The position numbers were made by a program, and so were the translations under genes. The notes beneath the pieces were generated by a model. It did not search any database, was not told where the DNA came from, and saw nothing but the letters and a program-made list of their open reading frames with translations. DNA of 64,000 bases from Candidatus Hadarchaeota archaeon (GTDB lineage: Archaea > Hadarchaeota > Hadarchaeia > Hadarchaeales > Hadarchaeaceae), in the NCBI GenBank assembly GCA_964514945.1, contig CAZESD010000001.1:40246-104245 (forward strand), read 5' to 3'. Shown here one piece after another: positions 34,171-56,548 of this stretch (position 1 is the first letter of the stretch; each line of letters begins with the position of its first letter).

Positions 34171-34309
34171 TTTATTACCTCCTTTTTTGTTAACACACTC
34201 GATACTCATTTCTTCGTTATTTAAAGGTTGTGGACTTTTAGTAAATATTATTAAAATAAAGCCTTAATCTCGTCTGGAAACTTTAAAGGTATGTAAAATA
34301 AATGAAAAA

Positions 34310-35371: not shown

Positions 35372-35373
35372 CT

Positions 35374-36213: not shown

Positions 36214-36272
36214 TAAATTTACTCGGGGATTGTTTATCGTGATAACTAAGAACATGAGGGGAGGAATAAAAA

Positions 36273-37262
36273 ATGAATAAAACTCTTCTCCAAGTCAAAG
36301 ACCTCAAAGGCTACTACAGAGGCACGTTTGGCGTCGTCCATGCTGTGGATGGTGTTTCACTTAAAGTCAGTGAGGGCGAAAGAATTGGTATCGCTGGTGA
36401 ATCTGGGTGCGGGAAATCTACCTTTGCGCAACTTGTCACCGGTACTACAACGCCCCTATTGCATTATGAGGGTGGCGAAGTCAAAGTCAATGGTTTTGAT
36501 GTCTGGAAGATTTCCCCCGAAAAATTAAGAAAAGATGTTAAATGTAAACTCATATCCTATGTGCCTCAAGCTATGTTAAATTCTCTAAATCCAGTTAAAA
36601 AAGTTAGGGAGTTCATTGCGGACATGTTAAAAGAACGTACTGGGCGGAAACACTCCGTCAATGAAGTCCGCGAAATGGCGGCCGACCATTTCGAGAGGTT
36701 GGGCCTAGATAAGCATGTTCTCGATGTTTATCCGCACGAACTCAGTGGAGGCATGACGCAAAGAGCTATCACGGCAATATCAACGCTGGCAAATCCGAAA
36801 CTTTTGATTACGGATGAACCCACCTCAGCCCTTGATGTGACCTCTCAGAAACGAATGATAGAACTGATGATAGATATACAGAGAAAGGGGATAATAAAAA
36901 GTCTTATGTGTATCTCCCACGATTTGTCCGCCCTGAATCAACTGTGCGATCGGATTATAATCATGTACGGTGGAAAATTCGTGGAAAGTGGAAAGATGGA
37001 CGAGGTCGTAAATAACCCTCTTCACCCTTATACTCGCGCGCTGATGGATTCTCTGTTGCCTCTCGAACGGCAAACAAAGAATAAATCGTTGACGAGTATA
37101 CCGGGGGTAGTTCCCGATCTGAGAAATCCTCCGCCCGGATGCAGGTTTCATACCCGGTGTGAAAAATTCATGGAGATATGCAGATCTAAGAATCCCCCAA
37201 CTATCGAGAAAAAAGGCAGAAGTGTTAAGTGCTGGCTTTACAGCAGGGGTCGATTGAAATGA
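36273..37262 (+). CDS. ABC transporter ATP-binding protein (DppD/OppD-like)
   Basis: Walker A 'GESGCGKST', signature 'LSGGMTQR', Walker B 'LLITDEPTSALD', C-terminal oligopeptide/dipeptide domain 'HPYTRAL...PPGCRFHTRC'. Confidence 0.9.
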   Translation: MNKTLLQVKDLKGYYRGTFGVVHAVDGVSLKVSEGERIGIAGESGCGKSTFAQLVTGTTTPLLHYEGGEVKVNGFDVWKISPEKLRKDVKCKLISYVPQAMLNSLNPVKKVREFIADMLKERTGRKHSVNEVREMAADHFERLGLDKHVLDVYPHELSGGMTQRAITAISTLANPKLLITDEPTSALDVTSQKRMIELMIDIQRKGIIKSLMCISHDLSALNQLCDRIIIMYGGKFVESGKMDEVVNNPLHPYTRALMDSLLPLERQTKNKSLTSIPGVVPDLRNPPPGCRFHTRCEKFMEICRSKNPPTIEKKGRSVKCWLYSRGRLK

Positions 37263-38053
37263 AGAAAAACACGCTTTTGGAGGTCAAAAATTTAACAAAG
37301 CTCTACACCTCAGGCTACATCCGGACAGCTGAAGTAATAGGCGCAAAAAATGTATCATTTAACATGAAAAAAGGTGAGATATTTTGCCTAGTGGGCGAAA
37401 GCGGTAGCGGCAAGACTACCGTGGGCAATATAATTTTGAGATTAATTAAACCAAGCAGCGGTAAAGTTCTTCTCAATGGCAAGGATGTTTTTTCATATGA
37501 TAAACGAGTTTACTGGAGAAAAGTACAGGCTGTCTTCCAGGACCCCTACTCGTCATTTAACTTCTTTTATAATGTCGATAAACCTCTAAACGACGCATTT
37601 GACCTCCTCGATAATTCTCCTTCCAAGGATGAAAGAAAGAAGATCATCAGGTCTACTCTAGAAACGATTGGGATGAATCCAGATGAAATTCTAGGGAGAT
37701 ATCCCCATCAATTGAGCGGAGGACAGATGCAGCGAATCCTAATCGCGAGAGCTCTGATCACCGGTTCTGATTTGTTGGTGGCCGACGAGTTGACAAGCAT
37801 GATAGACGCGTCGACCCGTGTCGCGGTCCTGAACGAACTCTTACGATTGAAGAAAAACGAGAAAATGTCGGTATTGTTCATAACGCACGATCTGGCGCAG
37901 GCATATTTCATCGGCGATAGGATAGCGATAATGAGGAAAGGAGAGATAGTTGAGAGGGGCCCGGTCAAAAAGGTCATCTTCAATCCAAAACATCCGTACA
38001 CAAAGGAGCTAGTTGCGAGCGTGCCGCCACTCCATGAAAAATGGGAGTTGTAA
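37259..38053 (+). CDS. ABC transporter ATP-binding protein (DppF/OppF-like)
   Basis: ATG 37259 (ATGA overlap with the upstream stop) inside ORF 37229..38053. 'GESGSGKTT', 'LSGGQMQR', 'LLVADELTSMID', 'HPYTKEL'. Confidence 0.9.
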   Translation: MKKNTLLEVKNLTKLYTSGYIRTAEVIGAKNVSFNMKKGEIFCLVGESGSGKTTVGNIILRLIKPSSGKVLLNGKDVFSYDKRVYWRKVQAVFQDPYSSFNFFYNVDKPLNDAFDLLDNSPSKDERKKIIRSTLETIGMNPDEILGRYPHQLSGGQMQRILIARALITGSDLLVADELTSMIDASTRVAVLNELLRLKKNEKMSVLFITHDLAQAYFIGDRIAIMRKGEIVERGPVKKVIFNPKHPYTKELVASVPPLHEKWEL

Positions 38054-39546: not shown

Positions 39547-40710
39547 CTAGCCAATGATTGAGGAAGCAATGATGTTATGGAATAGCGGTCTGATTCGAAG
39601 GATCGCTTCGTTCTCCCTCGTAGGGTGAACCCTATTCGTCATAAGGACCGTGATAAGCTTGTTTACTGGGTCGGCCCACAGAGAAACTCCAGGGAAACCA
39701 GTATGCCCGAAAGTCAAGGGGGACAACAATTCGCCAGCTTGGGATCCTTTCTCCGCCTTGACACCCCACCCTAAACCCCTAGGTTCCTCCAGCCCTACCG
39801 TGTGATTCTTGGTCATCAAATCAACAGTTGAGGGGCTGAGAATTCTGTTGTGCCCATACGCCCCCATATTGAGAAATGTTTGGCCAAATATGGCGAGGTC
39901 TTGGGCGGTAGAGAAAAGTCCAGCATTGCCACTTACTCCCCCCATGCCGAAAGCGTTTTCGTCGTGGACCTCCCCTACGAGAATGCGCCCCCGCCAGCTA
40001 CATCTCTCGGTCGCCGCGATTCTATCCCTCAACTTTGCCGGAGGAGTGAAGAGGGTATCCTTCATCCCCAAGGGTGAGAAGATTTCTCTTCTGGAAAAGG
40101 ATGCTAGGCTCTCACCTGCAACTTTCTCTATGATGAACGCCAATAAGATAAACCCTAAGCAACTGTAACTAACCTTACTGCCGGGAGGACATTCCAGTTC
40201 CACATGACATATTTCTCTTAGAAAATCTTCCCTAGTTTTGCACCGCTTATATAGCTGAATTGGATCAGGGATACCGGCTGTGTGTGTTAACAAATTGTGT
40301 AATGTGGTTTTTTCCTTTCCCCCTCCAGTGTACTCTGGAATATAGAGGTTTACGGGGTCGTCCAGCAAAACCTTTCCTTTTTCAAGTAGAATCATCAAGG
40401 ATGTTGCTGTAGCCACCGGTTTGGTCACCGATCCGATATCGAAAATGGTATCTAATTTCATAGGTTTAGAGAGTTCCGAGGGTATAGATACCGCCTCCCC
40501 GCAAGCTTCGTGTGCCACTACCGTGCCGTTACGTGCTACCAAAAACACAGCCCCGGGAAAAGCTTTTTCAGAAATGGCATTCTTGATGAATTCACTTGCT
40601 CTCCTAAGGCGGCTGGGATCCATCTCCACGTCTTCTGGATTACCATGCCTCAGAACACATTCGACAGACATTCTAGATTTTTTGGCCTCAGATTCAACAT
40701 CGCCGCCCAA
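39547..40710 (-). CDS. Beta-lactamase-family serine hydrolase (PBP/esterase/D-aminopeptidase-like)
   Basis: Catalytic 'IGSVTKPVA' (SxxK), 'SYSCLGF' (YxN-like) and 'FGHTGFPG' (HxG). Start placed at TTG 40710 after GAGGTGAT; the internal ATG ('MSVECVL') is an alternative. Confidence 0.8.
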   Translation of the reverse strand: MGGDVESEAKKSRMSVECVLRHGNPEDVEMDPSRLRRASEFIKNAISEKAFPGAVFLVARNGTVVAHEACGEAVSIPSELSKPMKLDTIFDIGSVTKPVATATSLMILLEKGKVLLDDPVNLYIPEYTGGGKEKTTLHNLLTHTAGIPDPIQLYKRCKTREDFLREICHVELECPPGSKVSYSCLGFILLAFIIEKVAGESLASFSRREIFSPLGMKDTLFTPPAKLRDRIAATERCSWRGRILVGEVHDENAFGMGGVSGNAGLFSTAQDLAIFGQTFLNMGAYGHNRILSPSTVDLMTKNHTVGLEEPRGLGWGVKAEKGSQAGELLSPLTFGHTGFPGVSLWADPVNKLITVLMTNRVHPTRENEAILRIRPLFHNIIASSIIG

Positions 40711-40800
40711 AGATATCACCTCGTTAAACCAAGTGCTAAACACCCTCTAATGAAATTTAAAGTTTTTCAATTCTCCAAACTAAGTAATCTAGTTGAGTAT
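40576..40800 (-). repeat. Promoter/SD-leader cassette, copy C (diverged promoter, near-identical 5' coding block to copy B)
   Basis: SD/start block 'GGTTTAACGAGGTGATATCTTTGGGCGGCGAT'. Weaker similarity to A/B further upstream ('GAAATTTAAAG', 'TAATCTAGTTGAG', 'GTGAAATA'). Confidence 0.55.
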
Positions 40801-42800: not shown

Positions 42801-43829
42801 ATGAAGTCTAGAAGAACGGCGCCTCACAAGGATACGAAGCCAGCGAGCGAATCGTATGCGATAGGAGTTGATGTCGGTGGCACAAAAATTGCTTCAGCAC
42901 TGATGAGCTCAAAGGGCAAAATTGTTTTCCGCATCGAGGAGCCTACCACTACGGAAGATACAATAGACGCGGTGTTGTTCCAAATAGCAAAGTTAATCAA
43001 AAAAGTAATGGATCGATCAAGAGCAAGTGGGTTAAAAATCAAGGGGATCGGCATCGCATGTGCAACACTTGTGGAAAAATATGACGACAAAATTAGATGG
43101 TCATCGAACATTCCACAAATACAAGGCTCGACCCTGAAGAACTTTCTACGAAAAAATCTCGGTACTTCGCTCCCGATATTTGCGGTACACGACCACGTTA
43201 CACCGGTGCTTGGCGAACAATGGGTAGGTGCCGCCCGCGGGGCGAAAAATGCGATTTACATCATTCTGGGGACGGGCATAGGAAGCAGTATACTTATCGA
43301 CGAAAAACCGTACGACGGAGTTGGGCTTGCGGGTTCAATAGGATGGATGTTGCTTGGGCCCAACTTCATGGATAAAATTTACGATGAGGGCTGTTTTGAG
43401 AGCCTCTGTTCCGGCACGGGCATCGCTAGGAGAACCATTGAAGAAATACGCAAAGGGTCCAAGACGATGTTGATGGATATGGTGAATAATAAGATCGATG
43501 CCATAACCTCTAAATTGGTATTTGAGGCCGCAAGGAAGGGTGACTCGCTTGCCCTGAAAATTGTACGAGAAACCGCGACATATGTGGGCATTGTTGTGTC
43601 AAACCTCATCAGCACCCTAGCCCCGGAAGTGGTCATCATTGGAGGCGGAGTGGGGCAGTCCGCTGACCTGTTGATGAACCGCATAAAAAAAATCGTGGGG
43701 CTTTATTCACAGCCTTACTTGGCCAAAAAAGTTAAAGATAAAAAAATCAGGATAGTGCCCTCGTCGCTGGGGCCCGACGCCTCATTGTATGGGGCAGCAA
43801 AACTGGTATTTATATATGCGCATGGTTAG
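42801..43829 (+). CDS. ROK-family sugar kinase (glucokinase / N-acetylhexosamine kinase type)
   Basis: 342 aa. 'IGVDVGGTKIASALM', 'LGTGIGSSILI', and 'GGGVGQS' near the C-terminus. Confidence 0.85.
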   Translation: MKSRRTAPHKDTKPASESYAIGVDVGGTKIASALMSSKGKIVFRIEEPTTTEDTIDAVLFQIAKLIKKVMDRSRASGLKIKGIGIACATLVEKYDDKIRWSSNIPQIQGSTLKNFLRKNLGTSLPIFAVHDHVTPVLGEQWVGAARGAKNAIYIILGTGIGSSILIDEKPYDGVGLAGSIGWMLLGPNFMDKIYDEGCFESLCSGTGIARRTIEEIRKGSKTMLMDMVNNKIDAITSKLVFEAARKGDSLALKIVRETATYVGIVVSNLISTLAPEVVIIGGGVGQSADLLMNRIKKIVGLYSQPYLAKKVKDKKIRIVPSSLGPDASLYGAAKLVFIYAHG

Positions 43830-43887: not shown

Positions 43888-45255
43888 TTATTTAATAGGG
43901 TTTAGAATATTATTCGGATCAAAGAGCTTCTTTATCCCTTCCATCAACTGTATTTCCTTTTCAGATAAGCAAAGATTAAGATCTTCGATTCTGATTTTTC
44001 CTATCCCATGCTCACCTGTTATAATTCCCCCCAAATCGATGGCTGTTTTATAAATTTCCTTTTTCAACTTTTTGACGTAATCTAGATCCTTTCCTTTTTC
44101 TATCATTATATGCGAATGTAAATTACCATCCGCTGCATGTCCATACGTCGGGATATATGCATTAACTTTCTCAGCAATTTTTTCTATCGCGTCCATAAGT
44201 TTTCCCATATTGGCGGGTGGCACCGTCACATCTAGGATATCGGCAACTTCGGGCTTTAAGGCGGTGTAAATGTTACTCCTTATGTCCAGAATTCTATCCT
44301 GTTCTTCTCTTGACTCGGCGATCAAGGGCTCGAGGGAGTTGTTCTCTTGGCATGTCGCTGATATTTTCTCACTTTCTGAATATACTTCATCTATTCCGGC
44401 ACCCGCCACTATTACTATAAGAAAAGCATTTCCCTTTTCACATGGCCATTTTTTGCCCAGATGTTTAGCCGATTTTTTTATCGTGTCCTTTTCCACATAC
44501 TCTATAGCTAAAGGAATTACCCCCCTCTGCAGGATTTTTGGAACGGTGTTTAACGCATCATACCGGTTATCATATGGCACAATTAGTGTTGCAGTAGCCC
44601 CAAATTTTGGATATAGCCGAAAAATTGTTTTAGTTACTACACCCAATGTTCCTTCGCTTCCGATTATCAAATGCATTAGGTTATACCCGGTATTATTTTT
44701 TAATAACTTTCCCCCTAAATTCACTATTTCACCTGTAGGAAGCACGACTTCAACGCCTTTTACGTAATTTCTTATAATCCCGTATTTCACTGCTCTTGCT
44801 CCACCAGCATTACATACCACGAGTCCCCCCACCTGAGCTCCTTCATCTCCAGGGTGCGGTGGGAAGAGCATGTCAGCTTCCTCTGATGCTTTTAATAATT
44901 TTTCAAGCGTTACCCCCGCCTCGACAACTGCCATCATGTTTTCCTTATCTATCTCAATTTTGTCTATTCTCTCGGTGGAGAGGATTATGCCATCTTTAGT
45001 AGGGATGGCCCCCCCTACAAGCCCAGTTCCTCCGCCCCTGGGAAAAACTGGGATCTTTTTCTCACTGGCGAGTTTCAGGATTTTGGATATCTCTTGAGCG
45101 TTTGCGGGTTTTACCAAAACAACCTCGGCAGCGGGTTGGGGTCTGACAGAGGCGGCGGTCTCATCTATCAAATAATCCTCCATCTGTTCTCTTTTAGTTA
45201 CAACCCACTTTTTCCCCACGATCTCCCGCAGGTCCTTTTCAATTTCTTTTATCAA
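43888..45255 (-). CDS. FAD-linked oxidase (GlcD / D-lactate dehydrogenase family; LctD-like)
   Basis: 455 aa. FAD_binding_4 'PVFPRGGGTGLVGGAIP', C-terminal 'GGIITGEHGIGKIR' and 'DPNNILNP'. Confidence 0.85.
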   Translation of the reverse strand: MIKEIEKDLREIVGKKWVVTKREQMEDYLIDETAASVRPQPAAEVVLVKPANAQEISKILKLASEKKIPVFPRGGGTGLVGGAIPTKDGIILSTERIDKIEIDKENMMAVVEAGVTLEKLLKASEEADMLFPPHPGDEGAQVGGLVVCNAGGARAVKYGIIRNYVKGVEVVLPTGEIVNLGGKLLKNNTGYNLMHLIIGSEGTLGVVTKTIFRLYPKFGATATLIVPYDNRYDALNTVPKILQRGVIPLAIEYVEKDTIKKSAKHLGKKWPCEKGNAFLIVIVAGAGIDEVYSESEKISATCQENNSLEPLIAESREEQDRILDIRSNIYTALKPEVADILDVTVPPANMGKLMDAIEKIAEKVNAYIPTYGHAADGNLHSHIMIEKGKDLDYVKKLKKEIYKTAIDLGGIITGEHGIGKIRIEDLNLCLSEKEIQLMEGIKKLFDPNNILNPIK

Positions 45256-46253
45256 CTCAACACCTTGTTTTTATTTTTTCTTATTTCATCAATCAGTTTA
45301 GGTACTACCTCGTACAAATCTCCGACTATGCCATAATCGGCCACTTTAAATATTGGAGCCGAGGGGTCTGTGTTTATTGCTACAATTATATCGGAATCCC
45401 TCATGCCAGCTAAGTGCTGAGGTGCGCCAGATATACCACATGCAACATAGAGCTTTGGTTTTACCGTGTTTCCGCTGAATCCAACTTGATGTTCCCTTCC
45501 TATCCACCCCTCATCCACCAAAGGTCTACTGGATCCAACGACTCCACCTAAAAAATCAGCCAGTTCACGCAGAATTTTGAAATCATCTGGTTTTTTTAAC
45601 CCTCTTCCACCCGAGACGATGATATCCGCTTCCGTTATGTTGACTTCTCCTGCTTTTTCTTTCTTTAAAATCTTCATTCCGCTATTCTCAATAAACTCCG
45701 CATCTTTCATTATTATTTCTCCTTTTCTGGTTGGATCCCTCTCCCTTTTCTTCATTACTTTATATCTAACCGTAGACATTTGAGGTCTTGTTTTGGTCTT
45801 TATGTAAGCGAGGATATTGCCGCTAAATGCGGGTCGAATCTGGATTAAATTCCCTTCTTCATCCACCTTTAAATCAATACAATCAGCCGTCAATCCTGTT
45901 TTTAACGCCACTGCTATCCTTGGCCCCAAGGACCTTCCGAGATGAGTCGCTCCGAGTAGAAATATCTCGGGCTTTTCTTCCTTCACCAAATTCACTATAT
46001 TCTGTTTATAACAAATCACGTCAAAATTTTTAAGAGATGGATGGTCGTGCAAAAATATTTTATCCGCCCCATGGTAAATCAGTTCATTAACTTCATTTTT
46101 CATTTGAAAGCCTAGTAAAACGCAGGAAAGCTCTACGCCCAACTTATCTGCAATATCTCTTCCTTTACCCAACAACTCGTATGAAACTGGATGGATTTTT
46201 CCATCTTCCTGCTCCGCAAAAACCATTACTCCTTTATATTCGCCCATTATCAT
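45252..46253 (-). CDS. etfA: Electron transfer flavoprotein alpha subunit (FixB/bifurcating-type)
   Basis: 333 aa. 'GLTADCIDL...IQIRPAFSGN', 'VSGGRGL', 'VGSSRPLVDEGW', 'QVGFSGNTVKPKLYVACGISGAPQH'. 4-nt overlap with the oxidase gene. Confidence 0.9.
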   Translation of the reverse strand: MIMGEYKGVMVFAEQEDGKIHPVSYELLGKGRDIADKLGVELSCVLLGFQMKNEVNELIYHGADKIFLHDHPSLKNFDVICYKQNIVNLVKEEKPEIFLLGATHLGRSLGPRIAVALKTGLTADCIDLKVDEEGNLIQIRPAFSGNILAYIKTKTRPQMSTVRYKVMKKRERDPTRKGEIIMKDAEFIENSGMKILKKEKAGEVNITEADIIVSGGRGLKKPDDFKILRELADFLGGVVGSSRPLVDEGWIGREHQVGFSGNTVKPKLYVACGISGAPQHLAGMRDSDIIVAINTDPSAPIFKVADYGIVGDLYEVVPKLIDEIRKNKNKVLS

Positions 46254-47080
46254 ACCTTCAATACTTTTTCTAATTCCTCCACAAACTTTTTCGCCGCTTC
46301 ATCTGGCGTTCCCCTAAAAATTTTTCCTCGCCTACCCTCTACAGACGGAATTGTGATCTTGTATACGCTAGTCGGTGACCCCGTTATCCCAAATTTATTC
46401 CTGTCAGCGCCATTTGCGAGATCGTTCATACTCCAAATTTCAATTTCAGATTTTCTTGCTTTTAATTTATCCCGTAAAGATGGGAGCCTAGGTTCGTTGA
46501 TATCCTTTGTCACCGTGATCAACCCAAGGGGCTTAAATTCCGTCAAGTAACGATATTCTCCCCTCTGCGATACAACGACAAATCCCTCTTTTTCACATTT
46601 TTTTATTTCAGAAACATAAGCGATGTGCGGAATACCCAGATGTTCCGCGACTTCAGGCCCTACTTGACCTGTGTCCCCATCAACGGTTTTTTCTCCGCAA
46701 ATGATAAGATTAAAATTTCCTAATTTTTTAATGGCACTAGCGAGAGTATATGAAGTAGCCAACGTGTCAGCGCCTCCAAACTTCTTGTCTGTGAGCAAAA
46801 TGGCTCTATCGGCCCCCCTAGCCAAGGCATCTCTCAGCGCTGATTCCGCTTGGGGAGGCCCCATGCTGACCACGGTTACTGTGCCTCCTAATTCCTCCTT
46901 GATTTGGACGCCCGCCTCCAGAGCGTTTAGGTCGAAAGGATTAGGCTCAGCTTTTGCTGAACTTCTGTCCAGCGTCCCCTTTTCAGTATCAAATTTTACT
47001 TCCTCGATATCAGGGACTTGCTTAAGAAGTACGATTATGTTGGACCTTTCATTTGCTGTCTCGCCGGAATTGTGAATCAT
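46250..47080 (-). CDS. etfB: Electron transfer flavoprotein beta subunit (FixA/bifurcating-type)
   Basis: 276 aa. 'IIVLLKQVPD', 'NPFDLNALE', 'ICGEKTVDGDTGQVGPEVAEHLGIPH'. GGAGGT SD. 4-nt overlap with etfA. Confidence 0.9.
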   Translation of the reverse strand: MIHNSGETANERSNIIVLLKQVPDIEEVKFDTEKGTLDRSSAKAEPNPFDLNALEAGVQIKEELGGTVTVVSMGPPQAESALRDALARGADRAILLTDKKFGGADTLATSYTLASAIKKLGNFNLIICGEKTVDGDTGQVGPEVAEHLGIPHIAYVSEIKKCEKEGFVVVSQRGEYRYLTEFKPLGLITVTKDINEPRLPSLRDKLKARKSEIEIWSMNDLANGADRNKFGITGSPTSVYKITIPSVEGRRGKIFRGTPDEAAKKFVEELEKVLKV

Positions 47081-47129
47081 GGCAATACCTCCCCAGTTCG
47101 ATTCCGTTTTGTTTCATAAGTTTTAAAGT

Positions 47130-47906
47130 GTGAGGAATAAAAAGAGTGTGGGTGAGAATTTGAGAACCGAATATTTATATGAATCCTACTTTGACGAGAC
47201 AGAGAAAGTACTGATGAAGATAAGGAAAACACAACAAGAAAACATTCTGAAAGCTGCAGAATTAGTTTCAGAGTGCATTAAAAACGACGGGTTGGTCCGT
47301 ACCTTCGGAACAGGGCACTCGCACATTCTAGCCGAAGAGATTTTCTTCCGAGCGGGCACTCTTGCCCCAGTTTCTGCAATTCTTGAGCCATCTTTGATGA
47401 CATATCACGAAGCCATTAAAAGTTCCGCTATGGAACGACTAGAAGGAGTTGGAAAAATTATTGTAGATTACGTTGATCCGGACCCTCAGGACGTATTTAT
47501 TATCATCTCCAATTCAGGTCGGAATCCTGTCCCCATTGAAGTTGCTATGGAAGCCAAAAAGAGGGGGAACAAAATAGTAGCGGTAACTTCTAAAACATAT
47601 AGCAAAAGTGCTCCGTCCCGACATTCCAGCGGTAAAAGACTGATGGATGTCGCAGATGTGGTTCTAGATAACTGTGGAGAAATAGGAGACGTTGCTGTTA
47701 AAATACCCGGTTTAGAGCAAGGTTTAGGGCCCACATCTACGATTACGAGTGCTTACCTGCTGCACGCAGTTATGGTTCAGGCCACGTCTAACCTGTCAAA
47801 AATAATGAAAGAACCTCCTATTTTCTGGAGCGCAAACCTACCCGGAGGAATGGAAAAGAACCGAAAAATAATCGACAAATATCGGAACAAAATTAGGAAT
47901 TGGTAG
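47130..47906 (+). CDS. SIS-domain protein, UPF0309 family (paralog 1; function unknown)
   Basis: 258 aa. 'GLVRTFGTGHSHILAEEIFFRAGTLAPV', 'IISNSGRNPVPIEVAMEAKKRGNKIVAVTS', 'SRHSSGKRL'. The start is uncertain (GTG 47130, GTG 47145 or TTG 47157) because a TATA-like 'AAGTTTTAAAG' sits at about 47116. Confidence 0.75.
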   Translation: MRNKKSVGENLRTEYLYESYFDETEKVLMKIRKTQQENILKAAELVSECIKNDGLVRTFGTGHSHILAEEIFFRAGTLAPVSAILEPSLMTYHEAIKSSAMERLEGVGKIIVDYVDPDPQDVFIIISNSGRNPVPIEVAMEAKKRGNKIVAVTSKTYSKSAPSRHSSGKRLMDVADVVLDNCGEIGDVAVKIPGLEQGLGPTSTITSAYLLHAVMVQATSNLSKIMKEPPIFWSANLPGGMEKNRKIIDKYRNKIRNW

Positions 47907-48003: not shown

Positions 48004-48384
48004 GTGGAGGTGAAAGCATTGGAAAATTTTATGAAAAAGTTGAAGAAGTGGGAGCCTACTCGTAGGAGATCAACACAAAACGAAGTTTCCATCGATAAAA
48101 TAGGCATCGATTTATTTGCCTGGGCCGTTGGACATTTCAAGGGATACAAAGGAGCGGACCTGTACATAGACGACAAAATGAGCTTGCTAGGGATAAAACC
48201 AGTCGCGAAAGGACAGCGGAGCTTGATTTCAAAAGCAGAGGGGAACGGATTTTTTGTTTCCTGCACCTCACTCATGAGACAAGCCGGTGTGAATGGAAGG
48301 AAAAGGGTCAAAGCCAAATGGAACGAGAGGGAGAAAATGTTGCTCGTTTACCTGAAAGGCCGCCCCGGAGAGAAAACCAATTAA
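48004..48384 (+). CDS. Hypothetical protein
   Basis: 126-aa ORF with a GTG start and no motif I can name. It is basic and has a plausible upstream TATA ('CTAATATATTTAAG'). Confidence 0.35.
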   Translation: MEVKALENFMKKLKKWEPTRRRSTQNEVSIDKIGIDLFAWAVGHFKGYKGADLYIDDKMSLLGIKPVAKGQRSLISKAEGNGFFVSCTSLMRQAGVNGRKRVKAKWNEREKMLLVYLKGRPGEKTN

Positions 48385-48630: not shown

Positions 48631-48843
48631 TTAGTCGCCCGTAATAGTTTTTCCAATTTTTTTATCAAAAAAGTAGGCTTTATCCCAGTCAAAGCCTATC
48701 CACGCGTTTTCACCTATCTCTTGTTTGAAATTCAATCCAGTTCTCAATTTTAAGTAAGTATTTCCCATCTCTACAGTAACTAACTTTTCATTCTTTTCCA
48801 CTCTCTTATTTTGTATCCAGAACTCAATGCTCTCTCTTGCCAC
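48631..48843 (-). pseudogene. Isolated C-terminal TOBE-domain fragment of a MalK/UgpC-type sugar ABC ATPase
   Basis: 70 aa. '...LVTVEMGNTYLKLRTG...ENAWIGFDWDKAYFFDKKIGKTI' matches only the regulatory C-terminal domain. No NBD lies upstream, and it overlaps the nagB upstream region. Confidence 0.55.
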
Positions 48844-48942
48844 TATTGTGAATGGGGAGTGTTCTACGAAAGAACTTTATTTAAATATCGGGCACGATTT
48901 GTTTATGCGAGGTTTGGAAAAGAAAACGGGGGTCGAAACAAC

Positions 48943-49683
48943 ATGCCGATTGAAGTTTTCACCACAAAGGACTATGATGAGCTCAGCAAGAGGGCGGCTG
49001 AGATCATCGCAGATGCCATAAGAAACAAACCGAACTCGGTTCTTGGATTGGCCACCGGAAGCACCCCCATTGGCTGCTACCGCGAGTTCGTCCGCATGCA
49101 TAAGGAGGAAGGACTTGACTTCTCAAGGGTTGTGACATTCAACCTAGACGAGTATATTGGGTTACCACCAACCCACCCCCAAAGCTACCGATATTTCATG
49201 AATGAAAACCTCTTCAACCATGTAAACATCAAAATAGAGAATACGCATGTTCCGAATGGTCTATCAGACGATCTCCAGAGGACTTGCAAGGAGTTTGAGG
49301 AAGCCATTAAGAAGTTTGGTGGAATCGACCTCCAACTCCTAGGTATAGGAACCACCGGACACATAGCATTCAATGAGCCAGGTTCACTATTCGACTCTAG
49401 AACTAGGGTTGTGAACGTCTCGGAGCAAACGATAAAAGATAATGCGCGATTTTTCAAATCCATTGATGAGGTGCCCCGTCAAGCAATCTCCATGGGAACT
49501 GGCACCATCATGGAAGCGAGGAAAATCATTCTCCTAGCAAGCGGTGGGGGAAAGGCGGATGCGGTTGCCAAGTCAGTTAAGGGACCAGTAACAGAAGAGG
49601 TACCTGCGTCGATTCTCCAGACTCACCCTAACTGTACATTTATTATTGACGAAGCAGCGGCTTCTAAACTTGAAAGTATTTAA
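48943..49683 (+). CDS. nagB: Glucosamine-6-phosphate deaminase
   Basis: ATG 48943 inside ORF 48811..49683. 'VLGLATGSTPIG', 'TFNLDEYIGL', 'DLQLLGIGTTGHIAFNEPGS', 'AISMGTGTIMEARKIILLASG'. Confidence 0.9.
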   Translation: MPIEVFTTKDYDELSKRAAEIIADAIRNKPNSVLGLATGSTPIGCYREFVRMHKEEGLDFSRVVTFNLDEYIGLPPTHPQSYRYFMNENLFNHVNIKIENTHVPNGLSDDLQRTCKEFEEAIKKFGGIDLQLLGIGTTGHIAFNEPGSLFDSRTRVVNVSEQTIKDNARFFKSIDEVPRQAISMGTGTIMEARKIILLASGGGKADAVAKSVKGPVTEEVPASILQTHPNCTFIIDEAAASKLESI

Positions 49684-49723: not shown

Positions 49724-50929
49724 ATGTTGAAGGGTAATTTAATAATAGGCCAGTCCGGCGGTCCGACCTGCGTAATCAACGCTAGTTTATGTGGTGTAAT
49801 TCAAGAAGCAAAGAAACACAGGGGAATAGAGGAAATACACGGAATGCGTTTCGGCATCGAGGGGTTCATGAAGGAGAACATCGTCAATCTCCGGTATGAA
49901 GACGAGGAGACTATTGATGGGCTGCGGGACACCCCATCCGCCGCTTTGGGATCCTCCCGTCACAAACTCAAGAATGATGATCTCTCTCGAGTCCTTGAGG
50001 TGCTCAAAAAATATGATATCAGGTATTTTTTTATGATCGGCGGCGACGACACCATGGATACGATTCGCAGGGTTGAAGAATATTGCGCCAGAGAGGGATA
50101 TGAAATCGTCTGTGTGGGAATACCCAAAACTGTAGACAACGACCTTTTTGGTACAGACCATGCTCCGGGCTTTCCAACAGCGGCGAGATTTATAGCCCTC
50201 TCGGTAAAACAGGGGGGAATTTTAGCCAGGGACATGCAAAAGGTGGACCAGTTTGTCATATATCAATCAATCGGTAGGGACGCCGGCTGGCTTGCTGCCT
50301 CGGCGGCCGTTGCTAAAGAAAAAGGATCGGACGCCCCCCATCTTATCATAATTCCAGAGAGACCGCTGAACAAGGAAAAATTCCTAGTAGAGGTCAAAAA
50401 ATTTTACGACAAATACGGCTTTGTATCCATAGTATGTGGCGAAGGAATCACCTGGGAGGACGGCACCCCCATCTCAGGATCTGTCATCAAGGACAAATTC
50501 GGAAATATCGAATTTGGGGCGATGGGTGGAACCTCCGCAGCTATGATTCTGCACAGAATAATCTCCTCTGAATTCGGTTGGCGCGGGGAATTTCAAATTA
50601 CCGAATCTCTGCCGATGTGCTGCGCAGATAGGATGGTTGAAGTAGATCGCGAGGAGGCTTATCTCGTCGGCGCGCAGGCTGTAAAATTAGCCGTTGAAGG
50701 AAAATCTGGCGTAATGGTCACCTTGGAAAGAAAGAGTAACCGTCCTTATCTATGCCAAACTGGGACGATCTCTTTGGAAGAAGTGGCAATGAAAACCAAA
50801 CCGATGCCGGACAATTATATTTCTAGCGACGGCTTTTTCGTTACCAGTAAATTTCTTGATTACATAAAACCTTTGGTCGGGGAAATTCCTCATTATGCTG
50901 AATTGAAAGCCAAAGCAGTAACAAAATGA
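49724..50929 (+). CDS. pfp: PfkA-family 6-phosphofructokinase with PPi-type signature residues
   Basis: 401 aa. 'IIGQSGGPTCVINAS', 'FFMIGGDDT' (Asp where ATP-PFKs have Gly), 'VGIPKTVDNDL' (Lys). Confidence 0.8.
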   Translation: MLKGNLIIGQSGGPTCVINASLCGVIQEAKKHRGIEEIHGMRFGIEGFMKENIVNLRYEDEETIDGLRDTPSAALGSSRHKLKNDDLSRVLEVLKKYDIRYFFMIGGDDTMDTIRRVEEYCAREGYEIVCVGIPKTVDNDLFGTDHAPGFPTAARFIALSVKQGGILARDMQKVDQFVIYQSIGRDAGWLAASAAVAKEKGSDAPHLIIIPERPLNKEKFLVEVKKFYDKYGFVSIVCGEGITWEDGTPISGSVIKDKFGNIEFGAMGGTSAAMILHRIISSEFGWRGEFQITESLPMCCADRMVEVDREEAYLVGAQAVKLAVEGKSGVMVTLERKSNRPYLCQTGTISLEEVAMKTKPMPDNYISSDGFFVTSKFLDYIKPLVGEIPHYAELKAKAVTK

Positions 50930-50946
50930 GTAAAAGCGAGGAATAA

Positions 50947-52106: not shown

Positions 52107-54299
52107 TCAAACCTGTTCGATTTTCAGTACGCAAACCTCTTGCGGTTCTAATTCTCGCTTAATTCGGAGGCCATTATCGTAGCTCCAATTTACCTCTGTC
52201 TGGTTGGGTAGGTCCAAAATCCTATATTTTCCTTCGGGGAGTCGCAAGCGAAAACTTACACTAGATTTTTTGTCATCATGGTTGAAGCCAAACAAGAACG
52301 TGTATCCTGCACCTTCCAATATCAGCCCTTCTACTTTTCCCCCATCTATATCCACTAGGGGCTCGACACCGGCCCATTTAAAGAGACCTTTCAGAAACTT
52401 TCCGTTTTCCTCAGCTCGAACTTTTTCATAAACCCCGCTGATCAACGAGCCTATCAATACCGCCTTGCCTTTGCCATAGCTGTTGATTATGATTGCCGGC
52501 AAACCGTTTTCAAAACGCGCCAAGATTTTTGCAGTATCCTTCAATGGTTCTAGGGCCTCTTCATAACCCGCTCCTGAGATCTCTATTTTTCCTGATAAAG
52601 ACGACATCTCTTGCACCGACTCTACCCACAGTTTCAGCTTTTGCCTCTCGAGTATCCATTTCTCCCTGCAACCGAAAACCTCGTGCAGACCAAGACCCGG
52701 TATCACTTCAGAACATTGCCCTTTTTCATCGCTCCACCCGGGTCGGACTTCCGCCACCAATTTCCCGCCCTGACGAACAAATTCCTTCACACCTTCAGCG
52801 ATTTCAGATGTCATCATGATGGAGAAAGGCATAAAGATGAGTTTGTAATTTTTCACGTTCCCCTTGGCAAAATCATTGATGTGGATGAAATCTACTGGAA
52901 TGTTCTCCTCCAATAGGGCACGATAGATACCTGTCAACGACGAAGATACAATATTTACAATCTCGTCGGCTCGCTCCCTAGAACAAGCCAGCATGATGTA
53001 GGAATAGATGTTGTATACGATACCAACTTCTGCCTGTGGGGGCTTGGCGTTTAAAAATAAATCCATGTTCTGGTTGACGATCCTCGCAACTTTTCCAGCT
53101 GCCCGAGCCCGTTCTGTTATGCTCCCATCCAAATTTATCAAGCCGAATCCCGAGGTCTCATACCCGCAGCTCATCGGGTACCAGGCATAGAAGTTCAAAC
53201 CTTTTGTCCCCCTGGCTATTGCGCTCCAAGCCCACATTTGTACATCTTGGGGGGTAACCGGCTCTCCAAAGCGAATTCCCTCTACGCCATTTCCGCCTTG
53301 AAGTTCCCCAAGCCAATAATCCTTTCCCTGAGTGTCGGAAGAAGATCGGGTTGCATCTAAAGCTACTCCACGCCATGCGGAATCAAGCGGCATACTTTCG
53401 CCGATGTGCTTTGGGTAGAGCGATGTTCCCCAAACATCAACCTGCTTGGCCATCTCCCAATCATCTGGACTACCATACCAATTTAGAGGTGGGATGAAAA
53501 CTGAACTGATGGCGGAGTGGCTGGAAACCACATGATCGGGATCGATTTTTTTTACTGTCTGGACTCGCCACTTCAAATCCTCTGCCAGCTTTTCTATGCT
53601 GAAGAGCTGCCAATCCACAAGGTCCCGCCAAGTTGATAACGTCACATACTTCGGTGGAATTACCTCATTCCAGTCTCGATAGACACGATACCAAGATCTG
53701 TTCAGGCTACTTATGTCGCCGTAACGTTTTTCCAACCAACGACGAAATCGCTCTTGGCTATGACGGCAATAACAGACCCAACCAACCGCTCTAGGAAGCC
53801 AGTCGAGCCAAGTCCAACTGACCACATGCGGCTCACTCCAAACATCCCAGCCGTAAAAATTTGGATGGTCCTTCACTCGCTCGGCCACTTTTTGCATGAA
53901 GAGCTCTGCTTCTTTTCTGACATCCGGATGATCGCAACAAAATCCCGGTGAGGCCTGCGAGTCGATCACGTCACCGCTTTGTGCTTGAAAGCGTGAATCG
54001 GGAAAAAGAGAGGCGATCCAGTTGGGCGCCGAGTCTAGGTACAGCTGGATGATTACCTTTAATTCGTTTTTCTCTGCCAAATCCATAAGACGGTCTATGA
54101 AGCCCAAATTCCAAACCCCGGGTTCGGGCTCTGCGGTTGCCCAATCAACCCAGTATTTCACGGCGTTGAAACCGAGTTTTTTCATGTTTTCGATGTCTCT
54201 CTGAGCAATTTTGTAGCTTTCTTCAGTGGATGGGGCGAGCATTGGCGCACGTGCTTTACCTTCGCCGTACCACACAGAAATGGGAAAGAAATCTGCCAT
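52107..54299 (-). CDS. GH42/GH35-like glycoside hydrolase (beta-galactosidase / exo-beta-D-glucosaminidase GlmA-like); cytoplasmic
   Basis: 730 aa. TIM-barrel N-domain 'GFNAVKYWVDWATAEPEPGVWN...VIIQLYLDSAPNW...HPNFYGWDVWSEP'. Central trimerisation-like domain 'FVRQGGKLVAEVRPG'. No signal peptide. Confidence 0.72.
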   Translation of the reverse strand: MADFFPISVWYGEGKARAPMLAPSTEESYKIAQRDIENMKKLGFNAVKYWVDWATAEPEPGVWNLGFIDRLMDLAEKNELKVIIQLYLDSAPNWIASLFPDSRFQAQSGDVIDSQASPGFCCDHPDVRKEAELFMQKVAERVKDHPNFYGWDVWSEPHVVSWTWLDWLPRAVGWVCYCRHSQERFRRWLEKRYGDISSLNRSWYRVYRDWNEVIPPKYVTLSTWRDLVDWQLFSIEKLAEDLKWRVQTVKKIDPDHVVSSHSAISSVFIPPLNWYGSPDDWEMAKQVDVWGTSLYPKHIGESMPLDSAWRGVALDATRSSSDTQGKDYWLGELQGGNGVEGIRFGEPVTPQDVQMWAWSAIARGTKGLNFYAWYPMSCGYETSGFGLINLDGSITERARAAGKVARIVNQNMDLFLNAKPPQAEVGIVYNIYSYIMLACSRERADEIVNIVSSSLTGIYRALLEENIPVDFIHINDFAKGNVKNYKLIFMPFSIMMTSEIAEGVKEFVRQGGKLVAEVRPGWSDEKGQCSEVIPGLGLHEVFGCREKWILERQKLKLWVESVQEMSSLSGKIEISGAGYEEALEPLKDTAKILARFENGLPAIIINSYGKGKAVLIGSLISGVYEKVRAEENGKFLKGLFKWAGVEPLVDIDGGKVEGLILEGAGYTFLFGFNHDDKKSSVSFRLRLPEGKYRILDLPNQTEVNWSYDNGLRIKRELEPQEVCVLKIEQV

Positions 54300-54307: not shown

Positions 54308-55057
54308 TTACCTTTCTTTCATCATTTTTCTGTAAGCTTCAAACACTTCTTCATTATGAGTCTTGGGTATTTCTTCAATATTTGGTGAGACAAAAACTTT
54401 TAGAGGTACGCCTTTATCAACTAGGATTTTTGCCACCTCCGCCACCAAAGCCATGGCGATGACAACTCCAGCCACCGTGGAGCCGGCCGCAAATGGCTCT
54501 CGCTGCCCGTCTATTTTCACCAGTGCATCCTCCAGCGGCACACAATTGTCAATCGTGATATCCGCTATATCGCATAGCCTATTTCCGCGGTGAGTGACGG
54601 AAGCTTTCTTCTGATTTTCCATCGAAGTAACCGCGACCACGAAGAGACCTGCTTTCTTGGCCCCAAGTGCCATCTCAACAGGCACAGCATTGATGCCCCC
54701 GTGAGAGAAAACCAACATGACGTCTTTGTCCTTAAGCTTATTACGTTTGAGAAGTATGCTGGCATAGCCCTTTTGACGCTCCAGCCAGAGCAATTCCTGA
54801 ACTCCCCCTGGACCGATTATATTGAACCACATTAGCCGCGGATCCAGCAACGGATGAAAGCCGACATAGCTGCCATAGCGGGGGAAGATATCGAGGACTG
54901 GTATCACTGAATGTCCGCTACCAAATAGATGGATAACTCCTCCTTGTGCAATGGAATTCGCCATGACCCGAGCGGCTTTTTTAATATGCTCGGATTGAGT
55001 TAAACGAATTTTTTTCAGAATCTCCTTGATAGCCTCAAAGTATTGGTCAGCTGTCAT
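54308..55057 (-). CDS. SIS-domain protein, UPF0309 family (paralog 2; function unknown)
   Basis: 249 aa. 'GVIHLFGSGHSVIPVLDIF', 'FSHGGINAVPVEMALGAKKAGLFVVAVTS', 'THRGNRL'. Its stop is 8 nt before the GH42/35-like start, so they form an operon. Confidence 0.75.
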   Translation of the reverse strand: MTADQYFEAIKEILKKIRLTQSEHIKKAARVMANSIAQGGVIHLFGSGHSVIPVLDIFPRYGSYVGFHPLLDPRLMWFNIIGPGGVQELLWLERQKGYASILLKRNKLKDKDVMLVFSHGGINAVPVEMALGAKKAGLFVVAVTSMENQKKASVTHRGNRLCDIADITIDNCVPLEDALVKIDGQREPFAAGSTVAGVVIAMALVAEVAKILVDKGVPLKVFVSPNIEEIPKTHNEEVFEAYRKMMKER

Positions 55058-55390
55058 GATCTACCCCCCAAATTTAAGTTCCCCAGTAGTTTACTGTCTA
55101 AGTTATAAAAAGTTTGTGCACTACAGGACTTTGCGCATAAAAATCAAACTTATTTTAAATTTTATTTCAAATTTATGCTTCATAAGCTCTAATTGAAAAG
55201 CGATTCCGGCAGAAATATTTTTAATAAGCAGGAGCCAACTCCAACAAGGATATAAAAGTGAAAATAGATTACTTGAGCCCTCTATGGGCAAGCTCTAACA
55301 TGCCAAGCGGAGAAAAAATGAATGATTCATATGTAAAGAAATATGGGCACGACAGGATTCACCATATGTAAATTTTATGGGGGTGATCAA

Positions 55391-56548
55391 TTGAGGTCTT
55401 TTTCCTTATCCGCTGGCGAGATACTTACTCCTTATAAAAAAATAAAAAATGGCGTTGTCACGATAGAGAACGGCATAATAACGGACGTCAGGGAGCGGGG
55501 AACCGAAAAAATCTCTTCAGATTTCTCCGAATCGATAATTGTTCCCGGTTTTATAGATGTACATATCCACGGGATCGCAGGTGTAGACGTGATGGACGCC
55601 ACGGTTGAGTCAATGGATAAGATGAGAAAATCATTAGTAAATCATGGCGTAACTGCCTTTTGTCCCACTTCGGATACGGCTCCTCTCGATCATATAAAGA
55701 AGGCTTTGAAAACTATTAATGTTAGTAAAAAATCCAATGCTAGAGCGCTTGGAGCACACTTGGAGGGCCCCTTCCTAAGCCCAGAAAAACCCGGCGCGAT
55801 GATAGCCGAAGATTTACGAACGCCGAACATAGATGAGTTTGATGCACTCTGGAATACATCAAAAAAATCCATTAAGTTAATAACGATAGCTCCCGAAGTA
55901 CCCGGAGCAATCAAACTCATAAAACATGCATCCTCACTAGGCGTTACAGTATCCCTTGGTCATTCAAACGCCACATACGAAGAAACATTAGCTGGCATAA
56001 GGGCGGGAGCAACTCATGCTACTCATTTGTTTAATGCCATGCGTGCGTATCATCATAGAGAACCGGGGATTTTAGGGGCTGTTTTGGAAAATCCCAAAGT
56101 TTCGGTGGAGCTTATTATGGATTTTGTTCATGTGCATCCATCAATAACCCGGTTAGTCTGCAAGTTAAAACCAAAAGATAAAGTTATCCTCATAACGGAT
56201 GCTATACGGGCCACAGATATGCCTGATGGCGTATATGAGAACAGATATGAATTGCATGTGAAGAATGGCGAAGTTAGGCTTCCCGATGGTACGCTAGCTG
56301 GAAGCACTTTAACTTTAGATAAAGCCTTACGCAATTTAGTATTTGAACTTGAGATATCACTTAAGGACGCCGTAACCATGATGACAGTAAACCCCGCCAA
56401 GGACATAAGAGTCGACGATGAAGTCGGAAGCATCGAAGTTGGAAAGCGTGCGGACCTTGTGATTTTAGATAAAAACTTAAATGTAATGAAGACGATTGTC
56501 GGTGGCGAGATTGTATTTGAGAACTTGAAACCCAAGAGGTTTAGATAA
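55391..56548 (+). CDS. nagA: N-acetylglucosamine-6-phosphate deacetylase
   Basis: ORF 55343..56548. TTG 55391 is preferred (GGGGGTGAT 4 nt upstream). 'VPGFIDVHIHG', 'GAHLEGPFLS', 'SLGHSNATY', 'THLFNAM', 'LITDAIRA'. Confidence 0.85.
   Translation: MRSFSLSAGEILTPYKKIKNGVVTIENGIITDVRERGTEKISSDFSESIIVPGFIDVHIHGIAGVDVMDATVESMDKMRKSLVNHGVTAFCPTSDTAPLDHIKKALKTINVSKKSNARALGAHLEGPFLSPEKPGAMIAEDLRTPNIDEFDALWNTSKKSIKLITIAPEVPGAIKLIKHASSLGVTVSLGHSNATYEETLAGIRAGATHATHLFNAMRAYHHREPGILGAVLENPKVSVELIMDFVHVHPSITRLVCKLKPKDKVILITDAIRATDMPDGVYENRYELHVKNGEVRLPDGTLAGSTLTLDKALRNLVFELEISLKDAVTMMTVNPAKDIRVDDEVGSIEVGKRADLVILDKNLNVMKTIVGGEIVFENLKPKRFR

Follow-up and report, generated by a model that had tools for sequence, protein, structure and literature searches.

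A candidate N-acetylmuramic acid 6-phosphate lactyl etherase of the UPF0309 family, encoded divergently from a lactate dehydrogenase/ETF operon in a Hadarchaeota archaeon

MurQ eliminates D-lactate from C3 of N-acetylmuramic acid 6-phosphate (MurNAc-6P), giving a 2,3-unsaturated intermediate that is then hydrated to N-acetylglucosamine 6-phosphate (GlcNAc-6P). Two kinases are known to form MurNAc-6P, AnmK and MurK. The subject of this report is SIS1, an uncharacterized SIS protein of the UPF0309 family encoded at 47130..47906 (+ strand) of a 64,000-nucleotide stretch (henceforth the window) of contig CAZESD010000001.1 from Candidatus Hadarchaeota archaeon. Its gene is divergent from an operon predicted to encode an FAD-dependent D-lactate dehydrogenase, resembling LctD, and an electron-transfer flavoprotein (ETF), an arrangement pointed out in the original prediction and borne out by the open reading frame (ORF), the family models, and the composition of the operon. 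SIS1 is probably a lactyl etherase acting on MurNAc-6P, standing in for MurQ without being its orthologue. The sequences establish its family, the conservation of its catalytic residues, which genes are its neighbors, and their linkage across genomes, whereas the substrate, the release of lactate, and joint regulation with the divergent operon are what we infer.

The only characterized member of UPF0309 that we found is NagS (SCO4393) of Streptomyces coelicolor (PDB 9eol, 9f7o, and 9f7v), described in 2025 as a GlcNAc-6P 2,3-dehydratase (PMC12680351). It strips O3 from GlcNAc-6P, leaving a C2=C3 double bond in a product called 6P-chromogen I that is toxic in Streptomyces, and it accepts N-acetylmannosamine 6-phosphate (ManNAc-6P) as well, while showing no significant binding of glucosamine 6-phosphate (GlcN-6P) or fructose 6-phosphate (Fru-6P) (PMC12680351). 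Residues H53, R64, E94, and D179 are essential to NagS and S91 and N228 are important, and the tree of SIS proteins drawn by its discoverers puts NagS beside MurQ (PMC12680351). In the NagS study no report was found of a test of MurNAc-6P as substrate (PMC12680351). Beyond this paper, searches of the literature concerning UPF0309 and muramic acid, archaeal AnmK or MurQ, and amino-sugar use by Hadarchaeota brought up nothing relevant, and nothing in the abstract and outline of a 2026 preprint, which concerns an unusual route for MurNAc in mycobacteria, points to UPF0309.

SIS1 in relation to NagS and MurQ

SIS1 belongs firmly to UPF0309/SIS_2, as a single-domain sugar-phosphate enzyme, matching both Pfam SIS_2 (PF13580; E = 1.9e-47, 161.2 bits against a cut-off of 27) and NCBIfam NF002805/PRK02947 (307.8 bits against 135). 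The PDB entries it matches are 3cvj (1.6e-53) and 9eol ("UPF0309 protein SCO4393", i.e., NagS; 3.3e-40). The same two stand out when its AlphaFold model (pLDDT 81.7) is compared with solved structures by Foldseek, with TM scores of 0.84-0.88 for 3cvj and 0.83 for 9eol before a drop to about 0.6. After this large gap, the folds outside UPF0309 that lie nearest the predicted structure are those of MurQ (1nri, 4m0d, 4s12), followed by GmhA. SIS1 scores far below the models for MurQ (NF003915; 22.7 bits against 168) and GmhA (26 against 265), by which measure it is not an orthologue of MurQ or a member of that family, as the original prediction had already said on noting the motif FGTGHSH (residues 59-65). 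The profiles of SIS1 and MurQ can be compared weakly (63% probability over 119 columns), and in that alignment the SIS1 sequence ERLEG (E102/E105) falls on EGAED of MurQ (E111/E114). Glu114 is one of two residues, the other being Glu83, that we take to be catalytic in MurQ (E. coli numbering).

Each of the nine positions at which NagS was mutated carries the same residue in SIS1 (NagS/SIS1: H53/H63, S54/S64, R64/R74, S91/S99, E94/E102, S119/S127, S121/S129, D179/D187, N228/N236). The reaction of NagS is presumably the second half-reaction of MurQ run in reverse, and so elimination of a lactyl ether would be chemically natural for a UPF0309 enzyme.

Perhaps, though, SIS1 does what NagS does, acting on GlcNAc-6P or ManNAc-6P as a dehydratase, as a hydratase working in the opposite direction to salvage the 2,3-unsaturated "chromogen I" 6-phosphate, or as a C2 epimerase, with lactate in no case a product. 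The identity of every catalytic and substrate-contacting residue speaks for this, but these residues hardly vary in UPF0309 at large, homologues reported to be inactive on GlcNAc-6P included, and therefore do not discriminate. Also, a toxic product is a poor fit to a catabolic operon. Orthologues of NagS share at least 58.7% identity, occur only in Streptomycetaceae, and always lie beside or divergent from dmdR1 (PMC12680351). SIS1 differs on all three counts, with 33% identity, an archaeal host, and etfB as its divergent neighbor. A NagS-like activity of SIS1 is on the whole unlikely, and the gene neighborhoods considered in the next section bear on it further.

Kinases and dehydrogenases near UPF0309 genes

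UPF0309 relatives number at least 2,500 at E <= 1e-10. Neighborhoods were surveyed in 80 loci from species-representative genomes, 80 from metagenomes, and several contigs carrying close homologues; ORFs were called and labeled by BLAST against reference proteins, neighbors were clustered, and representatives of the clusters were searched against Pfam. Survey loci are given L-numbers, and the counts that follow are of neighbors within four genes, among the 148 loci with a UPF0309 ORF. NagA was found in 26 loci, the IIA and IIB components of a mannose-type phosphotransferase system (PTS) in 21 and 18, respectively, a BadF-type sugar kinase in 17 (directly adjacent in 13), AnmK in 10 (8 directly adjacent, with one more, L120, found by tblastn), NanE in 10 (7 directly adjacent), a GntR/UTRA regulator in 7, and canonical MurQ in 6. 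Since the commonest neighbors deliver or consume N-acetyl-amino-sugar 6-phosphates, UPF0309 is firmly tied to the metabolism of these compounds. The original prediction had offered a survey of this kind, for association with amino-sugar or lactate genes, as a way to refute itself; the association was found, and the core idea survives.

SIS1 lies in a clade of nine lineages (61-94% identity), delineated by a neighbor-joining tree and later look-ups. In all nine, a homologue of AnmK or a MurK-like protein is encoded beside the SIS gene or a few genes away: AnmK in five (L001, L004/L005, L089, L172/L173, L174) and a BadF-type, MurK-like kinase in four (L002/L003, L088, L171, L016). NagA or NagB is found in most of the nine. 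No MurQ homologue was found in the window or in any locus of the clade. The clade as a whole exhibits the genomic association of MurQ, that is, a MurNAc-6P kinase together with NagA and NagB, of which the window itself has NagA, NagB, and a kinase of the ROK family only. Of these kinases, that of L173 passes the NCBI equivalog model for AnmK (455.6 bits, cut-off 387), and that of L088 has as its best PDB match the MurNAc/GlcNAc kinase MurK (8zo3, 2.5e-33; the next is 1.8e-14).

The arrangements within the clade vary. The window, L006 (a Hadesarchaea contig from a metagenome-assembled genome [MAG]), L091, and L001 all have the ETF and lactate dehydrogenase genes divergent from the SIS gene, to which L001 adds NagB, NagA, and two AnmK genes. 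In L004, L005, and L007 (Hadarchaeaceae), AnmK is followed after 33 bp by the SIS gene, a sugar ABC transporter, and NagA. L172 and L173 have, on one strand and with gaps mostly of 1-51 bp, a GntR regulator, SIS2 (a second UPF0309 paralog), SBP5, OppB, OppC, a PTE-family hydrolase, AnmK, a second NagA (NagA'), SIS1, NagA, NagB, EtfB, EtfA, and an FAD oxidase. The same core is found in L089, where it ends in Fer4, CCG, and FAD oxidase genes, and in L174 up to NagB, where the contig ends. The remaining lineages carry the BadF-type kinase: with ROK, NanE, and a binding protein in L002/L003; followed by the SIS gene, a PIG-L deacetylase, and an FGGY kinase in L171; 4 bp before the SIS gene in L088 (an MSBL1 archaeon); and between the SIS gene and NagA in L016 (Acetothermia). 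In the four AnmK operons with the PTE-family hydrolase (L172, 5667-8919; L173, 1190-6412; L174, 4443-9700; L089, 6805-12012), the hydrolase gene is directly upstream of AnmK, and two NagA paralogs, each about 42% identical to NagA of the window, flank SIS1. For one of the two, the substrate may be a muramyl compound or a precursor linked to peptide, in place of GlcNAc-6P.

A module resembling a D-lactate dehydrogenase is part of the cluster in three lineages of the clade, and it comes in two types, linked to ETF or to an iron-sulfur (Fe-S) protein. Apart from the lineage of the window, L173 has EtfB, EtfA, and an FAD oxidase after NagB in the same operon, the proteins being 40-47% identical to their counterparts in the window, and L089 has a GlcF-like Fe-S protein (Fer4 + CCG) with an FAD oxidase 34% identical to that of the window and closest, among PDB entries, to LctD. 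Since two non-orthologous dehydrogenase modules share the same core of AnmK, SIS, NagA, and NagB, their presence is best explained if a D-2-hydroxyacid is a product of the pathway. The known FAD dehydrogenases of the GlcD family are D-specific, in keeping with the D configuration of the lactyl group in muramic acid.

A skeptic might hold that the lactate genes say nothing about SIS1, which would be an accessory in the catabolism of chitin or GlcNAc, while the dehydrogenase and its ETF serve to metabolize fermentative or environmental lactate. The exact divergent arrangement is, to be sure, confined to one lineage, and most UPF0309 loci lack lactate genes. It recurs in L006 (SIS1 94% identical), L091 (86%), and L001 (83%), but because these and the window constitute a single lineage, that recurrence carries little weight by itself. 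In the same vein, the region around SIS1 holds genes of the sort that deal with chitooligosaccharides (YdjC/ChbG-like, GH9, GH42/GlmA-like, and CE4). What makes a chance pairing quite unlikely is that the association itself recurs, with dehydrogenase-like modules in the same operons of two further, distant lineages, one with ETF at 40-47% identity and the other with an Fe-S partner, and that linkage to AnmK- or MurK-like kinases is specific to a muramic acid route, not to chitin. The kinases and the recurring dehydrogenases are likewise left unexplained if SIS1 acts as NagS does, a reading that can otherwise claim the 7 loci with NanE directly beside the SIS gene and the 10 with NanE within four genes.

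The pairing with AnmK has a parallel outside the SIS1 clade. A separate bacterial clade (L112, L113, L114, L123, L132, L149, and, by tblastn, L120), metagenomic and of 60-69% GC, has SIS proteins 63-93% identical to one another. In all 6-7 of its loci where upstream sequence is present, anmK is immediately upstream of the SIS gene, and in L112-L114 the stop of the one overlaps the start of the other by 4 bp. The remaining neighbors are unrelated among the loci, and none of the loci has MurQ. Chance adjacency to a single-copy gene is estimated at about 0.1 loci in 148. The anmK-UPF0309 pair resembles the anmK-murQ module.

A comparable two-gene module is seen in L025 (an Akkermansia muciniphila MAG), L028, L030, L039, L040, L043, L045, L046, and L050, where a BadF-type (MurK/NagK-like) kinase gene is directly upstream of a single UPF0309 gene. 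The hosts are Verrucomicrobiota, Poribacteria, and Abyssobacteria, and include the mucin degrader Akkermansia.

Several observations weigh against SIS1 as a MurNAc-6P etherase. The first concerns the window itself, which within its 64 kb has no homologue of AnmK, MurK, or MurQ, the ROK kinase being the only one on hand, though L001, with a SIS protein 83% identical, has two AnmK genes. Second, the AnmK-like kinases give much the same scores whether compared with E. coli AnmK or with a fungal levoglucosan kinase (LGK), and the one in L001 favors LGK in a search of the PDB (258 vs 204 bits). An anhydro-sugar substrate is accordingly a prediction for these kinases. Third, catalytic Glu83 of MurQ has no counterpart in SIS1, where Thr77 takes its place in the 63%-probability alignment, and no active-site signature was found that is common and specific to both AnmK-linked clades; the only residues to stand out, E141 and R145, are on a helix outside the active site. 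Fourth, proteins from Clostridium, Paenibacillus, and Acidothermus, homologues of about 30% identity, failed to dehydrate GlcNAc-6P (PMC12680351).

Finally, there are neighborhoods of a different sort. Erysipelotrichaceae (L035, L056, L064, L076, L077, L026, L031, L055, L058, L066, L072) carry three tandem UPF0309 paralogs, each in a clade of its own, together with a mannose-type PTS and often genuine MurQ, a YfeW-like gene, NagA, and a GFO/IDH/MocA oxidoreductase. The triplets suggest hetero-oligomers or several related substrates, and since they adjoin genuine MurQ, UPF0309 cannot simply be a substitute for MurQ but must include other specificities. Bacterial loci L090 (9928-14325), L094, L102, L106, and L142 have UPF0309 immediately followed by NanE, an FGGY-family kinase, and NagA. 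This context hints at other substrates, some members perhaps making or using ManNAc-6P, and is of note because NagS accepts ManNAc-6P. The cleavage of a MurNAc-type lactyl ether, put forward in the original prediction, has in part been borne out, gaining support from the chemistry of NagS, the linkage to AnmK and MurK, and the recurring dehydrogenase modules.

The divergent operon and the surrounding island

The gene for SIS1 as given above is its longest ORF (258 aa), starting with GTG at 47130. The public gene call starts instead at GTG 47148 (252 aa), homologues are 245-248 aa in length, and a Shine-Dalgarno-like GGGTGA (47150-47155), just 5' of a TTG at 47160, is invariant in an alignment of the window, L001, L006, and L091. 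Translation probably begins at GTG 47148 or TTG 47160. Because the public call, the lengths of homologues, and the conserved GGGTGA favor a later start, the spacer between etfB and SIS1 is probably 67-79 bp. The 49 bp of the original prediction (47081-47129) stands as a minimum set by the longest ORF, but not as the likely real distance. Within the control region (47081..47159) can be read a TATA-like TTTTAAA (47121-47127), a putative promoter element, and, on the minus strand, the ribosome-binding site of etfB, GGGGAGG (47088-47094).

The operon on the other side of this region (all on the minus strand) encodes EtfB, the small subunit of ETF (46250..47080; Pfam ETF 1.4e-42), EtfA, the large subunit, of the bifurcating type (45252..46253; Pfam ETF and ETF_alpha), and the LctD-like FAD-dependent dehydrogenase, predicted to act on D-lactate (43888..45255; FAD_binding_4 and FAD-oxidase_C). 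The three genes overlap by 4 bp at each junction and are translationally coupled. The best PDB match of the FAD oxidase is LctD, a subunit of the lactate dehydrogenase (NAD+, ferredoxin) of Acetobacterium woodii (7qh2_C, 4e-97; the second-best is 2.6e-65), and the best matches of EtfA are the bifurcating ETFs CarE (6fah, 1.5e-102) and LctC (7qh2_A, 1.2e-87). EtfB carries the motif DGDTGQVGP, which we take to be typical of bifurcating ETFs. With a GlcD-family dehydrogenase closest to LctD, a bifurcating-type EtfAB, and the order etfB-etfA-lctD, the operon is of the LctBCD type. The oxidase falls below the cut-off of TIGR00387 (glcD; 344.7 against 567.9), and its sequence is compatible with D-lactate, glycolate, and other D-2-hydroxyacids.

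SIS1 and the operon are part of a low-GC island of about 35 kb (some 21 to 57 kb into the window), with 42-48% GC compared with 49-57% in the flanks and bounded by ThrRS/EamA on one side and NMD3/ilvBNCD on the other. Also encoded in the window are a ThrRS editing domain of archaeal type, RadA, and NMD3. A syntenic relative (L175, 1-20540; 80-93% nucleotide identity) lacks the equivalent of window positions 23818-45418, 49698-52090, and 53213-55656, and what remains in it of etfB, etfA, SIS1, GH42, and NagA is fragmented. Since L175 has lost three stretches and retains fragments, the island is accessory, able to decay as a unit and decaying in that strain.

Immediately 3' of SIS1 is an ORF of 126 aa (48004..48384, +) with no significant Pfam match; an ORF 82% identical occupies the same position in L006, and it is kept in L175 too. 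The next 560 bp or so (48385-48942) has no convincing ORF and no Rfam match, and an Rfam scan of the window gave no RNA family at all. Then comes NagB, glucosamine-6-phosphate deaminase (48811..49683, +; NF001684, 347.5 vs 326 bits; TIGR00502, 321 vs 237), whose Pfam match begins at residue 56 and whose likely start is ATG 48943, and a pyrophosphate (PPi)-dependent 6-phosphofructokinase (49724..50929, +; NF010675, 430.9 vs 273 bits). NagA, N-acetylglucosamine-6-phosphate deacetylase, is at 55343..56548 (+; TIGR00221, 354.2 vs 225.65 bits). Both Nag enzymes were anticipated by the original prediction, as was a second SIS protein in the window. Next to the dehydrogenase gene, in the window as in L006 (87% identity), is that of the ROK-family kinase (42801..43829, +; Pfam ROK 2.1e-49), whose best PDB matches are glucokinases; no other candidate for making an amino-sugar 6-phosphate is encoded in the window.

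The second SIS protein, SIS2 (54308..55057, -), is also of UPF0309 (NF002805, 269.7 bits) and is 33% identical to SIS1. It is separated by 8 bp, within an operon, from a GH42-like glycosidase with weak GlmA-like features (52107..54299, -; Glyco_hydro_42 1.3e-49, Glyco_hydro_42M 4.7e-22, GLMA_2nd 4.8e-5). SIS2 orthologues lie beside SIS1-type genes in L001, L089, L172, and L174, and the protein has Leu and Gly at the positions of S91 and S121 of NagS. It might serve to hydrate an intermediate, have a substrate of its own, or enter into a heterodimer.

The company of a GlmA-like glycosidase raises another possibility. SIS-fold deaminases exist (GlmD, AgaS, NagB-II), and GlmD is presumably found beside GlmA in Thermococcus in the way that SIS2 is found here. 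SIS1 could then be an isomerase-deaminase of an amino-sugar phosphate (GlcN-6P or a derivative of muramic acid or galactosamine), analogous to NagB or GlmD. Many UPF0309 loci would accommodate this, since they lack a classical NagB while having NagA, a GntR/UTRA regulator, and either a kinase or a PTS. However, the window, L001, L089, L172/L173, and L174 all have a classical NagB gene adjoining that of SIS1, and in L106 the adjacent gene is deaminase-like, with two SIS domains. Moreover, NagS does not significantly bind the substrate or product of such an enzyme (GlcN-6P, Fru-6P), its residues that hold the GlcNAc moiety are conserved in SIS1, and the UPF0309 family has no invariant lysine. 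A deaminase is thus very unlikely, and lactyl ether cleavage remains the preferred role for SIS1.

The island may also provide for the uptake and trimming of muropeptides. A transporter of the Opp/Dpp type (32335..38053; SBP_bac_5 and translations, comprising SBP_5, two permeases, and two ATPases) is a candidate importer; the operons of L089, L172, and L174 that contain AnmK and SIS genes include transporters of the same type, and its ATPases lie beside SIS1 in L006. Three genes had been suggested to process stem peptides, and all three are present. Of these, the serine hydrolase of beta-lactamase fold (39547..40743, -; PF00144 4.5e-68) has some comparative support: it resembles PBP4B/YfeW (NF002968, 204.7 bits, below the cut-off of 385), and its homologues adjoin genuine MurQ in the Erysipelotrichaceae loci L035, L056, L064, L076, and L077, as does yfeW in E. 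coli. It is possibly an amidase or peptidase acting on muropeptides. The other two, encoding a pentein-fold protein and an Amidohydro_2 protein, have no such support and are ruled out as conserved parts of the pathway, with no homologues in about 170 related loci.

A few other genes of the island deserve mention. A YdjC/ChbG-like carbohydrate deacetylase is encoded (25659-28433, -) together with an apparently intracellular GH9 enzyme carrying a CelD_N domain, a pair that presumably resembles the bacterial pairing of chitobiose deacetylase with GH9 glucosaminidase. With the GH42/GlmA-like enzyme, the pair suggests a route in which GlcNAc-containing oligosaccharides would be deacetylated and then cleaved. 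The CE4 polysaccharide deacetylase ORF (41956-42645, -) looks permuted or composite, its N-terminal part resembling the C-terminal half of CE4 and its residues 153-214 the N-terminal half, and it may be a rearranged gene or what is left of a tandem pair. On the margin of the island, beside MFS and EamA transporters, is a protein of L-fucose isomerase fold (21948-23276, -) whose best NCBIfam match is the sulfoquinovose isomerase SftI (163.7 bits, well under the cut-off of 700).

A proposed pathway and its relation to known systems

If SIS1 is a lactyl etherase, then it would open the ring of MurNAc-6P and take the proton from C2 by means of His63, Arg74, Glu102, and Asp187, after which the 3-O-D-lactyl group would be expelled by beta-elimination. 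The 2,3-unsaturated intermediate would be rehydrated to GlcNAc-6P by SIS1 or possibly by SIS2. NagA and NagB would convert GlcNAc-6P to Fru-6P, which the PPi-dependent phosphofructokinase would pass to glycolysis, and the released D-lactate would be oxidized to pyruvate by the divergently encoded LctD-EtfAB complex. With both promoters in one region of 67-79 bp, the production of D-lactate could be coupled to its removal, presumably through co-regulation.

A broader proposal, which we put forward only tentatively, is that UPF0309 proteins are widespread C3 beta-eliminases acting on 3-O-substituted N-acetylhexosamine 6-phosphates, among which the MurNAc-6P etherase is ancient and takes the place of MurQ in several lineages, bacterial as well as archaeal, while NagS would be a dehydratase derived from it. 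On this view, Hadarchaeota and uncultured archaea related to them would possess a complete catabolism of anhydromuropeptides, running from Opp-type import through trimming by amidohydrolase or PTE enzymes, phosphorylation by AnmK or MurK, and the UPF0309 etherase to NagA, NagB, and D-lactate dehydrogenase.

If these predictions are right, a large and almost wholly uncharacterized enzyme family, now annotated variously as "sugar isomerase domain-containing protein", "SIS domain-containing protein", "uncharacterized phosphosugar-binding protein", or "phosphoheptose isomerase", would gain a function open to test, and the removal of the lactyl ether would be explained in organisms that have AnmK or MurK but no nearby MurQ. 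NagS, recently called unprecedented, would become an offshoot of a family of etherase-type lyases. Archaea without murein would carry a pathway dedicated to the sugars of bacterial cell walls, so that those of the subsurface could live on bacterial cell-wall necromass, with a bearing on the turnover of its carbon and nitrogen in subsurface sediments.

How does the proposed enzyme compare with those already described? The closest solved structure, BH3325 of Bacillus halodurans (PDB 3cvj; 42% identity, with the TM scores given above), is a structural-genomics entry whose title, "putative phosphoheptose isomerase", is an annotation only, and we know of no function assigned to it. NagS is of the same family as SIS1 and, judging by the model, of the same fold, and both would be expected to deprotonate C2 and then lose the substituent at C3. 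The leaving group, however, is water in NagS and would be D-lactate in SIS1, which is part of an archaeal catabolic cluster and would serve nutrition, whereas NagS generates a signal of toxicity. With MurQ, the SIS1 clade shares the SIS fold, AnmK or MurK upstream, NagA and NagB downstream, a YfeW-like protein of beta-lactamase fold, and, as proposed, the net reaction. The two differ in length (about 300 residues in MurQ vs about 250) and in the catalytic set, which in SIS1 includes His, Arg, and Asp.

In its three subunits and their order, the operon divergent from SIS1 corresponds to the electron-confurcating lactate dehydrogenase/ETF complex LctBCD of A. woodii (PDB 7qh2). The alignment of EtfA of the window with LctC, however, starts only near residue 70 of the latter, and so EtfA lacks the N-terminal extension of LctC, which we take to be a ferredoxin-type domain. 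Also, the complex in A. woodii belongs to an operon with lactate permease and racemase, whereas that of the window is attached to an amino-sugar cluster.

The pathway as a whole is most like bacterial peptidoglycan recycling (AmpG or Opp, AmpD, NagZ, AnmK, MurQ, NagA, NagB). In L089 and L172-L174, a single transcription unit comprises the genes for an Opp-type importer, AnmK, NagA, and NagB, and UPF0309 stands where MurQ would be expected. No homologues of AmpD, NagZ, or LdcA were identified; in their stead are a PTE-family hydrolase and a second NagA paralog. The archaeal host has no murein of its own, and so the process would be one of scavenging rather than recycling. What appears to be new here, as far as the sequences speak to it, is a known reaction within a known pathway logic, performed by a different SIS family in a murein-free archaeon with a D-lactate dehydrogenase built in.

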